From positions 50,060 to 114,059 of IMG/VR virus record IMGVR_UViG_3300024259_000016: a stretch of 64,000 nucleotides of DNA; one strand, 5' to 3'. Shown piece after piece: positions 59,375 through 63,570 of this stretch. The stretch is from a virus. Both the position numbers and the translations under genes were made by a program. Each line of letters begins with the position of its first letter. The first letter of the stretch is position 1. The notes under the pieces were generated by a model. It saw only the letters and a list, made by a program, of their open reading frames with translations. It was not told where the DNA came from and did no database searches.

Positions 59375-59629
59375 TTATTCCGCCTCCTGTGCCTTCAAGA
59401 CTCTTTTTCCTTTGGCAGTGATGTACCAAAGCAGGGCACCTCGGGTCTCCCCCTTTTTTACTGTCTTTCGGGACCTAACTAAACCCTTGCCTCGGAGGCG
59501 GCGGAGGCGGCCAGCGACAGTGTTGTGTTGGGTTGGCCACAAGGCGGAAGAGATACAGTCCGTGGTGAGGCCGGAACGATAAGACCCGAATGCCTTGAGT
59601 GTTCTAATCTGGGGGGCTTTGAGGATCAT
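59375..59629 (-). CDS. Winged-helix DNA-binding protein
   Basis: IS..L......V..RLRRLRGKGLV...WYITAKG. Confidence 0.7.
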   Translation of the reverse strand: MILKAPQIRTLKAFGSYRSGLTTDCISSALWPTQHNTVAGRLRRLRGKGLVRSRKTVKKGETRGALLWYITAKGKRVLKAQEAE

Positions 59630-61863
59630 TTACAGTCCTTGATATTGGATGCGATCGAGGGTTCCATGGTGAGGTAGATGGGGCCGAAGTCAGACTGCAT
59701 CTCGACCTTGCCGAGGTGTTTCTTGTAGATGGCAGCAGCTTCCTCAGCGTGATTGTTGCGGACCAGAGAGGCCCCCTGGTCGTGCAGGTGCAGGAGCATG
59801 CCGAACTCGTGGGGGAACTTCTTCGTCCCCTCCTCCATGATACGCCAGAGCCGGGAGTTGAACTGGTCGCCGCATTCGGTCTGGGTGTCCCAGTTTGCCA
59901 GTTCGGTGGCAGGGAGGGGACGCAAGGGGCAGTAGCGACGACGGCGGAAGGGTTTAATCTCCATGTAGCCATCCCGCTCTACCTTCTTCAGGTTCTCCTC
60001 GTGGTAAACGTAGACCTCGGACAGGGCGCCGTGGAACAGGCGGGTGTGAACCTCCTTGACCATGTCGAGGGTGAGCATGCGCCGGGTCTCCATGTCCACC
60101 CACTTGGAGTTGCGGGCGGTGGACTGAATCTTGAAGGGCCCCCCGAGGTACATGCCATTGAAGAACACGTTCTTCTCAACCTTACGCAGGCGCCCGCGGT
60201 AGACGTTGTCCCAGCGTTCCCAGTTGTCTGGACCGAACACCTGCACGGCGCAGTAGGTGTGGGGGTCCACCTTGTCAGCAAAGTAGGAGCCCGGCTCGAT
60301 TTTCCCCTGAAGTACCTCGATGAGGCGGCGGCAACCAGACCGGGCGGCCAGGCGTCGGAGCTCCTGTTGGTCCACGTCCCCACCCACCATGCACCAGCCC
60401 TCAGGGGCCTCGAAGATGTCGCGGTCGATGGCCCTCATGTTCTGCAAGTTCGGCGACGAGGTGAACCTGATTCCCTTCTGGTCGTAGGACTTCCACTTGG
60501 TGTGCATGTAGCCGCCGGTGATCGCCGCGGCGTAGCTCCCGCACTTCTTGTTCTTGATGATGTCCAGGAGCCCTTCCTCGAGGTCAGTCTCCGTGAACTC
60601 CACCTCGTCCATCACGTTGCCCTGCTTGTCCAGGATGGAGAAGACATCACAGTCGATCAGACTCCCGCCGGCCTCTTTGATCTTGGCACGTTCCTCGTCG
60701 GGGGTGTCTTGGTAGATGGTGGCATAGGCAGTGGACTCTTCAATGAGGGTGACGAGCAAGGACACGAAGGGGTGCTCGATGTGGTCGATGATGGCCTTAT
60801 AGGAGGTGGAGGGTTCACCCAGTTCCTTGGTTGTCTCCGTCGGGACCAGTCCCAGGTTGTAAGGGGCCTGGGCGTACTTGGCGCCAAAGAGAGCCTCGGC
60901 CTTGTGGGCCGTGGACCTGTGGTTGAAGTCCGGCCAGCTGAGCCAGTCGCGAATTCTCTTACGGATGGCCATCATCTGCTTGAGACGGTCGACTGCTCTG
61001 GCCCGACGCTTCGCCATGTTGACCGGGATGCCCCAGTTCTGCATGTTGGCTGCCAGCTCAGCGTATCGGGATTGCCACTGAATCAACTCCTGGGACATGC
61101 CGAGCTGCTGGATATGGGCACTGATCTCTGGTACCAGCTGGATGGTATAAAGAGCATCCTTGGCGTTGTAGATGAGGAGCTTCCAGGGATTCTTTATCTT
61201 GACGCCGTAGCCCTCGTTGGTCTTGTACTCCATCTTCCAGGCGCCCACCTGCAAGTAGGAGTGCCCGACGTAGCCGAGGTCGTGGTAGATGTCCGGCTGG
61301 ACCAGATGGTGCAGGCCGATGGTGTCTCGGATCTCCCCTCGGACAGGCAGCCCCTTGCGTTCACAGACCGCGATGTCGTAGGGAGCGTTGTGGAAGACCT
61401 TGACGATCTCCGGGTCTGCCAGGATCTGCATGGTCAGCCCAACCAGGCACTGCTCCCAGGCCTCGGGCAGGAGCGACAGGTCCATTAGCGGGAAGGCGAC
61501 CGCCACGTTGTTGGGGGCCGCCTCAGCTATGGAGATCGAGTGGAGCCGGCACTTGGCGTAATCAAGGGAGGTGGACTCCACATCGATGGCCAGGGCCGGC
61601 TTGGCGATGAGCCAGTACTCGAGCCACCGTTTGGCATGCTCGAAGTACTCCACCGCGTTGACAGGCCCCCGCGGCAGCACACAGATTAGGGTCTCCTCGT
61701 GGGTGATTCCCCCCCGAGAAATCTGGTGGGCCTTCTCGAAGTCCTGGGCAACCACCCCGGTGATCGGCTTGATCCCCTTGGTGTCCAGGCCCCGCTTGCC
61801 CCTTCCCTTCTTCGCTTGGTGGAAGATGGAGGCAAGGTGGTTCGTTGGAATCACATGGGCCAC
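59626..61863 (-). CDS. polA: Family A DNA polymerase with 3'-5' exonuclease and N-terminal UDG C-terminal fragment
   Basis: Exo I DVES, Exo II HNAPYD, Exo III YNAKD; PNLQN; motif A DVDQQELR, motif B RKVEKNVFFNGMY, motif C HLHDQ. Confidence 0.93.
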   Translation of the reverse strand: MAHVIPTNHLASIFHQAKKGRGKRGLDTKGIKPITGVVAQDFEKAHQISRGGITHEETLICVLPRGPVNAVEYFEHAKRWLEYWLIAKPALAIDVESTSLDYAKCRLHSISIAEAAPNNVAVAFPLMDLSLLPEAWEQCLVGLTMQILADPEIVKVFHNAPYDIAVCERKGLPVRGEIRDTIGLHHLVQPDIYHDLGYVGHSYLQVGAWKMEYKTNEGYGVKIKNPWKLLIYNAKDALYTIQLVPEISAHIQQLGMSQELIQWQSRYAELAANMQNWGIPVNMAKRRARAVDRLKQMMAIRKRIRDWLSWPDFNHRSTAHKAEALFGAKYAQAPYNLGLVPTETTKELGEPSTSYKAIIDHIEHPFVSLLVTLIEESTAYATIYQDTPDEERAKIKEAGGSLIDCDVFSILDKQGNVMDEVEFTETDLEEGLLDIIKNKKCGSYAAAITGGYMHTKWKSYDQKGIRFTSSPNLQNMRAIDRDIFEAPEGWCMVGGDVDQQELRRLAARSGCRRLIEVLQGKIEPGSYFADKVDPHTYCAVQVFGPDNWERWDNVYRGRLRKVEKNVFFNGMYLGGPFKIQSTARNSKWVDMETRRMLTLDMVKEVHTRLFHGALSEVYVYHEENLKKVERDGYMEIKPFRRRRYCPLRPLPATELANWDTQTECGDQFNSRLWRIMEEGTKKFPHEFGMLLHLHDQGASLVRNNHAEEAAAIYKKHLGKVEMQSDFGPIYLTMEPSIASNIKDCK

Positions 61864-62102
61864 TATGGTTCTTTCCTCGGGACATTGGCTTTGTTGGGGG
61901 TGGAGGCGAACCGGGTGCCCTTCTGGTTATACGGTTTCCAGGCGGGGCACTCAGGGGCTAACGCTTCGAGTTCATCAGCCCTATAGGCTGCTATGAGCAG
62001 ACCTTTAGCTAACTGACGGGCATCCTCTGCATCGATGACTTCCATCGATCCAGCATTGTAGTGGGAGGGATGGTCGACGGTTTCTTTACTCATGGTCTCC
62101 AT
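61863..62102 (-). CDS. Chimeric protein with truncated DUF3310-like N-terminus
   Basis: VDHPSHYNAGSMEVIDA then unrelated sequence. Confidence 0.6.
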   Translation of the reverse strand: METMSKETVDHPSHYNAGSMEVIDAEDARQLAKGLLIAAYRADELEALAPECPAWKPYNQKGTRFASTPNKANVPRKEP

Positions 62103-62455
62103 GGTCTCCCGTTCTCGTCGGTGAGGGTGGCACCCTCAAAGGTAGACATTTCCCAACCTGAGAAGTCCTTCCCCTCGGTCTGCCCGAGTCGCTCAAGCCC
62201 TTTCCATACGTACAGGTGGTAGGCAAGACATTGCTCCTCGCTGACCACGATCTTGTCGGGCTTGCCCTGGCGCTCCCAGGCCTCCCTGATATCCCACTCA
62301 GGCAGTCGGTCGATGAACGTCAAAGCCTTGGAGTAGGAGGTGAACTTTCGCTGCTCATGACCCTCGGCGAGGATAGCCCCATGGGGTGTCCTCTGGTACA
62401 GACGCCAGCGACGATCCCTATCCTGCTGAGTGAAGATGTATCCCACGTCAGGCAT
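62090..62455 (-). CDS. Hypothetical protein
   Basis: Overlap coupling on both sides. Confidence 0.65.
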   Translation of the reverse strand: MPDVGYIFTQQDRDRRWRLYQRTPHGAILAEGHEQRKFTSYSKALTFIDRLPEWDIREAWERQGKPDKIVVSEEQCLAYHLYVWKGLERLGQTEGKDFSGWEMSTFEGATLTDENGRPWRP

Positions 62456-62975
62456 TGTTTTGCTCAATCCGAGTTGAGGTTTGGAGGAGCCTGTCGTACC
62501 AACCATCCCGTTGCATATTGACGACAGGGATGTTGTGGGCACTGGCAATCCTTATAGCCTGCCCGGTGCCCCCTGTTCTGCGGGATGTCTGGTGTCCCCG
62601 CTCTGCCCCGTCCGGAGTCCAGCAGACGACCAGGTGGGTTGGACTCTTGAGGTTCAACCCGAGGATCTGATAGCCGTTACGGGCATGGAGCTTCTGAGCT
62701 TGCAGAGGACAGGCCCCCCAAGCTGGGTGATGGTGAGCAGCGAGTCGTAGGGCATATGCACGCTGGTCCTGTGATGCCCCCTCAAAGGAGTTCGTTGTAT
62801 AGATGATCTTGTGGTTATCAGCCCCATCAGCAAAGGCTGTGTCAGCCCCTTTGGCCCCTCCGGATCTAAGCCACCACCCCCGGCCCAGTAGGTATTGTGC
62901 CCACTGCCTCATCTGAGCCAGGAACTCTGGGGGGGTCCTCCTTGAACCTATACCTGTATACATAAGGTTTCCCAT
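62448..62975 (-). CDS. SLOG-superfamily (DprA/Smf-like) protein
   Basis: YTGIGSR, LRSGGAKGAD, ARN, GGTGQAIRIA...IPVVN. Confidence 0.85.
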   Translation of the reverse strand: MGNLMYTGIGSRRTPPEFLAQMRQWAQYLLGRGWWLRSGGAKGADTAFADGADNHKIIYTTNSFEGASQDQRAYALRLAAHHHPAWGACPLQAQKLHARNGYQILGLNLKSPTHLVVCWTPDGAERGHQTSRRTGGTGQAIRIASAHNIPVVNMQRDGWYDRLLQTSTRIEQNNA

Positions 62976-63039
62976 CCGGCTATTCCTCAGATTTTTTAAG
63001 TAGGTGGATCATCATGTCCATGGCTTCCGATGGGGTAGA

Positions 63040-63570
63040 TCATCGGTGGCACTCCTTCCAGAGTTCTTGGAGGTCGATGGGATTGACGCTGCCGCGGTAG
63101 TCCCTGATGGATCCTTTGATGCCGGTCAAGGCTTTCATGGAGTGCTTGCCTACAGCAACGATGACGGTGTCCGGGTGGTCCTCACTGACGGCGAGGAGTT
63201 CTCCGATGAGGCGCTTACGGCAGTGGTCCATTGCGAGCTTGTGCACCAGGTCGGAGGACAGGGTAGGGCCGCCGCCGGGTGGCTTGATGGGGCGCTTTCT
63301 GCACAACGTTGTGTTGGTTACCCAACAGTCCATCCGGGAGAAACCAGGGTCGCCGTTTTCGGTCAGGTACCACTGGGCTCTACCGGTTGGGCCGATGAAG
63401 AACTTCCGTTCTCTCTTGGGATTGTTCCCTTCCTCCTCAAATCCAGGCCCCTCTCCTACAAGGATAAGTCGGGAGGGGACTTTGCCGTCGGGATAGACCA
63501 TGACGGACTTCCCATCATTGAGGGGGCATCCCTGGCAATCCGGCTGGGTTATGAGGCCGTGGTAGTACAT
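63040..63570 (-). CDS. Family-4-like uracil-DNA glycosylase domain, C-terminally incomplete
   Basis: CQGC, VGEGPG, FIGPTG, VTNTTLC, C..RL..E, IVAVG, RG; no terminal HP motif. Confidence 0.85.
   Translation of the reverse strand: MYYHGLITQPDCQGCPLNDGKSVMVYPDGKVPSRLILVGEGPGFEEEGNNPKRERKFFIGPTGRAQWYLTENGDPGFSRMDCWVTNTTLCRKRPIKPPGGGPTLSSDLVHKLAMDHCRKRLIGELLAVSEDHPDTVIVAVGKHSMKALTGIKGSIRDYRGSVNPIDLQELWKECHR

Follow-up and report, generated by a model that had tools for sequence, protein, structure and literature searches.

How can one uracil-DNA glycosylase (UDG) fold be encoded on both sides of a gene boundary? The question is raised by a family-A DNA polymerase gene (PolA) and a small gene upstream of it in the window, by which we mean the whole 64,000-nt stretch analysed here, the right-hand 64 kb of the 114,059-bp virus record IMGVR_UViG_3300024259_000016 (G000), which has direct terminal repeats. 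The small gene encodes a free family-4 UDG-like protein that stops short of the full fold (hereafter UDG-N), and the first residues of the polymerase (UDG-C) resemble what it lacks. A sequence-only reading of this stretch had proposed that an ancestral fusion was broken inside the domain and both halves kept. We find the same break throughout a clade of polymerases, and we consider it likely that it records the ancient fission of a single-chain UDG-PolA gene, with fold and active site reassembled in trans. The sequences and structure models suggest that the free protein and the polymerase probably snap together as a two-subunit uracil-sensing replicase.

The two pieces lie in a run of five close-packed, co-directional open reading frames (ORFs) on the minus strand (59626-63570; Table 1), with 1176 nt between the UDG-N stop and the polymerase start, as the gene order and 1.18-kb gap of the sequence-only reading had it. 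The translational signals it described are also present: the polymerase GTG, the earliest possible start codon in its frame, overlaps the stop of the upstream DUF3310-like ORF (TAGTG), and a GAGGA Shine-Dalgarno (SD) sequence lies 11 nt upstream. No minus-strand terminator was found between the UDG ORF and the polymerase. UDG-N is the sole match to the Pfam UDG family PF03167 in the 114-kb genome and is matched over profile positions 4-102 of 141 only (E 2.6e-8; 34.5 bits, above the 24.3 cut-off of this superfamily model); the NCBIfam models TIGR00758 and NF040953 give it 36.5 bits (cut-off 125.3) and 37.6 bits (cut-off 250). In T. maritima TM0511 the aligned part is residues 17-149 of 192, so that UDG-N lacks the final ~40 residues of the fold. 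The part present holds motif A (GEGPG, with the catalytic Glu), FxGxxG, the uracil-recognizing Asn of 'VTNTT', IVAVG and YRGS, together with iron–sulfur (Fe-S)-type cysteines, two of them N-terminal (C12 and C15) and two further on (C90 and C117), for which cluster binding is predicted from sequence. The protein ends about 16 residues past YRGS in a short helical tail (DLQELW...), without motif B (HP[SA]) and the closing helices; motif B is found at polymerase residues 5-12 instead. Sequence, Pfam and the TM0511 alignment agree here with what had been read from the letters, namely GEGPG, four cysteines, IVAVG...RG and no motif B.

The polymerase (MAHVIPTNHLAS...QDFEKAHQI at its N-terminus) starts three residues before its 'VIPTNH' motif-B strand. 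UDG-C comprises this strand with its conserved His, VIPTNH(L)AS, then a 14-residue basic insertion and a closing helix (...QDFEKAHQI), to be compared with ...VIPTFHPSYLL...EDIEKAK at TM0511 residues 156-185. It is followed by a 3'-5' exonuclease (residues 87-249, PF01612, E 1.4e-13) and the polymerase domain (residues 451-719, PF00476, E 6.1e-13), both above cut-off. Pfam has no match in the window N-terminus taken alone (60 and 80 aa). When a profile of ten polymerase N-termini is searched against the PDB, family-4 UDGs are the best natural matches, at the missing part of the fold (TM0511 residues 156-185, E 0.23; S. tokodaii UDG residues 159-191, E 1.3). The change from HP to HL and the 14-residue insertion are specific to a subclade, being common to the window, P0002 and L002; further DNA contacts or a change in catalysis may result from the insertion.

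For comparison we collected 63 loci by profile-guided scans of viral and metagenomic contigs, with six-frame ORFs scanned by hidden Markov models; all relatives are metagenomic. The two pieces are colinear with fused homologues: in the 859-aa polymerase of Caudoviricetes sp. vir526, residues 8-145 align with the UDG-N profile, the match to the polymerase-family profile opens at residue 154 (profile position 4), and the Pfam UDG domain, residues 23-167, crosses the junction between the two profiles. About 40 further loci have the same colinear fused arrangement. Two split loci, L038 and L033, have their halves in frame and one stop apart; when that stop is read through, the single Pfam UDG alignment lengthens from profile position 102 to 123/124 and gains 9.4 bits (L038) and 6.6 bits (L033), despite the inserted tail. 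We modelled the covalent read-through of L038 (UDG-N, tail and polymerase residues 1-60) with AlphaFold2, using alignment rows from the split clade only. The model has a mean predicted local distance difference test score (pLDDT) of 89.9 and a predicted TM-score (pTM) of 0.86, and the polymerase-derived strand (189-194) and helices (198-203 and 208-222) have pLDDT 87-96. Its residues 8-225 match TM0511 (1vk2) chain residues 3-190 as a complete family-4 fold (Z 21.5, root-mean-square deviation 2.7 A, 183/190 residues), and UdgX, T. thermophilus UDG and S. tokodaii UDG are matched no less well (Z 20-21.5). The complete alpha/beta UDG fold is thus reached, in this relative, only by both pieces together. 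A larger construct from L004, a 950-residue read-through in which two TGA codons are taken as Trp and a junk spacer of 87 aa precedes the full polymerase, is also modelled well (pLDDT 89.8, pTM 0.86, disorder confined to the spacer); its best BFVD viral match is an 823-aa polymerase (TM 0.80, target-normalized), and it matches Klenow fragment at Z 32, to be read as compatibility with such an architecture. The VIA structure search with this model returns Klenow-type polymerases only, over residues 314-944, and is silent on UDG placement. Taken together, the comparative, Pfam read-through and fold results are decisive in assigning to the polymerase N-terminus the predicted missing motif-B strand and closing helices, the match to a UDG strand and helix from which the inquiry began.

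The break is a property of the clade. A word-indexed search gives ~30 polymerase homologues (32-72% identity), nearly all starting M-x-x-[VI]-P-T-x-H-P-A-x-x-L-R...D-L-x-K-A at residue 1, and a precomputed UDG domain is present in 0 of the ~30. A separate UDG-N ORF lies upstream on the same strand for 23 of the 27 distinct core-clade polymerase N-termini, plus the window; the other four loci have <1.9 kb of upstream DNA or a permuted contig. The breakpoint is thereby shared by ~24 distinct loci. Throughout the clade UDG-N ends 15-30 aa past YRGS, and the distance from its stop to the polymerase start spans -4 to 3830 nt, in relative frames 0, 1 and 2. Abutting halves have coupled stop/start junctions (TAGTG, ATGA, TGATG or TAGATG), and purine-rich SD-like runs precede the polymerase start in relatives. 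Gap contents vary by locus (DUF1848, DHH phosphoesterases, Dam methylase or a 905-aa vault-like protein, with a DprA-like gene in the window); the three intervening ORFs of the window are therefore a secondary, lineage-specific filling of an old break. They are present as first described, and as a clade feature they do not hold, many relatives having abutting, coupled halves. One locus, L036, has polymerase profile positions 490-578 upstream of 2-469, probably a permuted or circular assembly artefact. Outside these contigs little is found: a tblastn search of 50,697 phage records with UDG-N gives no match, the polymerase gives only distant ones (<30% identity), and no cultured relative is therefore known. 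A word-indexed homologue search with UDG-N returns 2 proteins only. The polymerase profile finds no relative among prokaryotes searched at one genome per species, hence no prophage or host clue.

Conservation extends to the residues that matter on each side. Invariant in 23 UDG-N proteins are C12, C15, E40, P42, G43, G60, G63, N86, C90, C117, R159 and G160; across 20 polymerases UDG-C shows no variation at P6, H9, D41 or A45, and the motif-B His is kept in 27/27 distinct polymerase N-termini. An exhaustive UDG-N profile search yields 45 clusters (50% identity level) at E <= 1e-30, and the best ~35 of the 45 are short proteins without motif B or such proteins interrupted by an intein; fused polymerases (870-945 aa) rank next after the split forms, from E ~1e-37. 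LAGLIDADG inteins occupy two conserved sites in the UDG-N of relatives, directly after GE.PG and near the TN..C motif. Inteins typically sit at conserved sites of proteins that must stay functional. A UDG ORF decaying in relatives would have told against a kept pair; we find it hosting inteins, with catalytic and Fe-S residues invariant, and this pattern indicates that both halves are under selection. Besides the intein of L045 (junctions ...GEGPG/C...VIHN/S), UDG-N inteins occur in L044 and in proteins P0072, P0075, P0078, P0085, P0092 and P0094.

A tree of the exonuclease and polymerase domains, built with the UDG-C columns removed, unites all split-type polymerases in a 64-leaf clade (support 0.99-1.0) that has no fused member and is sister to the fused UDG-PolAs of 870-945 aa. 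The fused sister clade carries a ~25-residue insertion from 'HG[AS]' to motif B (...VDLxxL...(loop)...TY[VI].P..HPA), and in the split clade that '...DLxxL...' helix closes the free protein and the sequence resumes at '(M)TY.IP..HPA'. Since this insertion shares both helix and restart with the split halves, alignment indicates that the fission is a stop and a restart inside a pre-existing surface loop, with no mobile element needed and none seen; Pfam finds no homing endonuclease (HNH, GIY-YIG or LAGLIDADG) in 18 gap ORFs plus the window. The sister relationship and the colinear pieces uphold the proposal of an ancestral fusion broken inside the domain with both halves retained, with one correction to the site, which falls in the ~25-aa insertion loop also carried by the fused sister clade. 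Two phage loci of greater divergence are cut in this loop as well: L066, with a spacer of ~200 nt and a polymerase that falls among fused forms and not in the core split clade, and L086, with a 338-nt spacer. There are hints of more than one independent fission (in the core clade and in the L066 type), from a FastTree topology with long branches.

The fission would have left two products: UDG-N, a ~170-190-aa Fe-S protein with the Glu, a base-stacking Phe and the uracil-recognizing Asn, and a polymerase whose first ~40-50 residues would be the missing edge strand, with the motif-B His, and the closing helices. By fold complementation the polymerase N-terminus would insert into UDG-N and rebuild a four-stranded sheet, giving a composite active site with Glu and Asn from UDG-N and His from the polymerase. 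A uracil-reading or -excising module would thus be tethered at the exonuclease/fingers side of the polymerase where, by analogy with fused UDG-PolAs such as phiLo, it would read template single-stranded DNA for uracil ahead of synthesis. Since the His is supplied by the polymerase, UDG-N by itself should be catalytically incomplete and inactive, its activity confined to the replicase. By analogy with the N4-like polymerases, the UDG module may serve only for binding or processivity. Only tentatively, and with rather more doubt than belief, do we go on to an obligate two-subunit UDG-polymerase whose active site would exist only at the interface, the free protein giving Glu, Asn, Phe and the Fe-S cluster and the polymerase the His, so that excision would be licensed only on the replicating polymerase, with the same loop cut independently at least twice.

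Other explanations have to be set against this one. That the likeness of the polymerase N-terminus to motif B is due to chance, or to an assembly artefact of one contig, is refuted by the comparative data and is scarcely conceivable: the 60-aa window N-terminus alone draws no Pfam match and the profile E-values against the PDB exceed 0.1, but the arrangement recurs in >20 independent assemblies, the pieces are colinear with fused homologues, the Pfam score rises over the junction and the fold match spans an entire family-4 UDG. We also regard as very unlikely that the halves are joined as one chain or reading frame, by a self-splicing intron, split intein, frameshifting, bypassing or stop read-through, to give a conventional UDG-PolA. 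Introns and inteins are common in phage polymerase genes, several relatives have inteins elsewhere in both genes, and the halves of L038 and L033 share a frame with only a stop between them; against this, the spacers of -4 to 3830 nt are filled with ordinary genes (DprA-like, Dam methylase, DHH, DUF1848 and vault-like), the relative frames 0, 1 and 2 fit no single recoding rule, and in nearly all members a start codon lies 2-5 codons before the motif-B strand, with SD-like sequences. In the window frame 18 stops separate the two halves. Neither the 15-30-aa tail of UDG-N nor the polymerase N-terminus is long enough for a split-intein half, and no intein motifs occur at the break; Rfam finds no intron or other RNA family in the window region (E <= 1) or in eight loci (gathering threshold), in keeping with the lack of intron and intein signatures noticed at the outset.

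A fission without functional reassembly deserves more weight and still seems unlikely. UDG-N alone would then be a truncated DNA/uracil-binding or Fe-S protein, and the polymerase N-terminus a remnant that caps or stabilizes the exonuclease. UDG domains of N4-like UDG-PolAs do persist after losing catalytic residues (PMC10201439), and motif B in the window is degenerate, with HL for HP. A remnant would nonetheless hardly keep the motif-B His invariant, and the flanking Pro/Thr/Ala nearly so, in a clade diverged to 32% identity, with the motif-A Glu, the Asn and all four Cys invariant in UDG-N; UDG-N invariably lies upstream of the polymerase gene on the same strand, often with translational coupling. 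A partnerless edge strand and helix would also expose hydrophobic surface, and AlphaFold2 places the polymerase strand and helices confidently in the UDG-N fold. Reassembly in trans is in our view the better account, and several points weigh against it. We infer the binding of the two halves, from sequence and single-chain models only, and with it stoichiometry, glycosylase activity and biological role. The AlphaFold2 models are covalent, single-chain read-throughs of the relatives L038 and L004, and the L004 alignment contained fused homologues, which brings that model close to homology modelling and makes it no independent test. The profile-only match of the N-termini to solved UDGs is statistically weak (E 0.23). 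In the window subclade motif B is HLAS, not HPA, and is followed by the basic insertion; catalysis may be altered there. Some fused-polymerase UDG domains (the N4-like ones) are catalytically dead, and the genome lacks ThyA, ThyX and dUTPase, so that it gives no hint of the thymine-modification context of some active UDG-PolAs.

Table 1. Positions of the split UDG-polymerase genes and related features. Numbers without a locus name are window positions; spacers run from the UDG-N stop to the polymerase start.
Feature	Location	Strand	Details
UDG-N	63040-63570	-	176 aa; free family-4 UDG-like protein, first ~3/4 of fold
DprA/SLOG-like gene	62448-62975	-	phrog_768, E 1.3e-47; between the halves, outside the split domain
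Hypothetical small protein	62090-62455	-	121 aa; motif W...F-x-S-Y-x-x-A-x-x-[AF]-I
DUF3310-like ORF	61863-62102	-	79 aa, HPSHY motif; weak Pfam PF11753 match, E 0.031
Family-A DNA polymerase (PolA)	59626-61863	-	745 aa; UDG-C, exonuclease and polymerase domain
UDG-C	61708-61863	-	first ~52 polymerase residues: motif-B strand, basic insertion, closing helix
14-residue Lys/Arg/Gly-rich insertion	61770-61823	-	QAKKGRGKRGLDTKG...; polymerase residues ~14-31, right after motif-B strand
Spacer -4 to 13 nt	L008/23/39, L019, L033, L035, L038, L041, L044/45		
Spacer ~200-400 nt	ten loci		
Spacer ~800 nt	L006, L037		
Spacer 1176 nt	window		
Spacer 1265 nt	L014, L017		
Spacer 2079 nt	L021		
Spacer 3520 nt	L003		
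Spacer 3830 nt	L002		
Gap small-protein family	62090-62455	-	
Gap small-protein family	L002:9663-9995; L005:9750-10013; L010:9737-9991; L014:534-866		
Gap small-protein family, further loci	L016:755-970; L021:6519-6779; L026:4635-4859		
UDG-N with intein	L045:6338-7984		
Vault-like ORF	L003:6558-9275		905 aa
More divergent split locus, polymerase outside core clade	L066:5818-9051		
More divergent split locus	L086:5941-7417		

The hypothetical small protein of the window has no Pfam or PHROG family, and an atlas search gave no usable match. It belongs to a family of 70-120 aa (W-x-[IV]...F-x-S-Y-x-x-A-x-x-A-I) that recurs between UDG-N and polymerase and is the sole gap occupant in several loci; it may have been the original wedge, or may act as a third partner. 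The vault-like ORF of L003, between UDG-N and polymerase, has Major Vault Protein repeat and shoulder domains, which is unusual for a phage. Many clade polymerases reach 1000-1160 aa through an insertion after about profile position 420 (P0006, P0010, P0012, P0018, P0019, P0028 and P0030; L008, L009, L010 and L033), and the P0006 polymerase carries an intein-splicing Pfam domain. No ThyA, ThyX or dUTPase was found in the 114,059-bp genome, and a link to thymine-modified DNA or thymine hypermodification is therefore not supported; the genome has no thymidylate synthase or dUTPase, yet encodes a uracil-glycosylase-type module on its replicase.

The coupling of uracil surveillance to replication by UDG-PolAs has been shown only recently (NAR 2026, PMC13697223), and the split clade would be a natural, widespread counterpart of these enzymes, with the fold and the catalytic residues of the UDG shared out between the polymerase and a detachable Fe-S subunit. 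It would make a clean system for the role of UDG on the replicase, as one half can be left out or altered while the other stays full-length; it is a rare intradomain gene fission retained over long evolutionary time, and a ready-made split-protein pair that may serve protein engineering. If the enzyme is indeed an obligate two-subunit one with its loop cut at least twice, the loop would be a natural, evolutionarily favoured split-enzyme site. There is also an annotation pitfall, in that the free ORF resembles a 'truncated UDG' and the polymerase N-terminus an unannotated leader.

Among known systems, the SPO1-like, SP15-like (phiLo and YerA41) and N4-like family-A polymerases carry an N-terminal UDG in one chain (PMC10201439; PMC13697223). 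Fused UDG-PolAs are active on template deoxyuridine, with Glu53 and His178 catalytic (PMC13697223), and cryo-electron microscopy and biochemistry place their UDG domain next to exonuclease/fingers (PMC13697223; PMC10201439). The split clade shares with these single-chain enzymes a family-4 UDG, 3'-5' exonuclease and polymerase in the same module order, with the SPO1-like and SP15-like enzymes the conserved catalytic Glu and His, and with the fused viral polymerase model its predicted overall architecture (L004). It differs in that the fold is cut within the domain, three-quarters of it being a separate product with up to 3.8 kb of genes between. Stand-alone family-4 UDGs (TM0511, T. thermophilus UDGA, S. 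tokodaii UDG and M. smegmatis UdgX) share fold, Fe-S Cys, motif A, Asn and motif B with UDG-N joined to the polymerase piece; they are one polypeptide, whereas UDG-N alone has no motif B. The literature searched, including PMC10201439 and PMC13697223, gave no split inside a UDG domain and only the T7-like exo/pol split. In that split of T7-like cyanophage PolA (S-SBP1-like; PMC10201439), a family-A polymerase is likewise encoded as two separate, presumably interacting subunits, but the cut falls between exonuclease and polymerase domains, whereas the UDG split is intradomain and divides the active site. The closest mechanistic precedent is 'genes-in-pieces' nrdA of Aeromonas phage Aeh1, a ribonucleotide reductase gene split by the homing endonuclease gene mobE, whose halves reassemble (PMC3045599). 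As in Aeh1 NrdA, a conserved catalytic domain is cut into two kept genes with unrelated DNA between and no RNA or protein splicing, and a two-chain active site is predicted here. Unlike Aeh1, no locus examined has a homing endonuclease between the halves, and the UDG-N tail derives from a loop that the fused ancestor already had, and not from a mobile element; and whereas the Aeh1 case is that of one phage, the UDG split is old and clade-wide.

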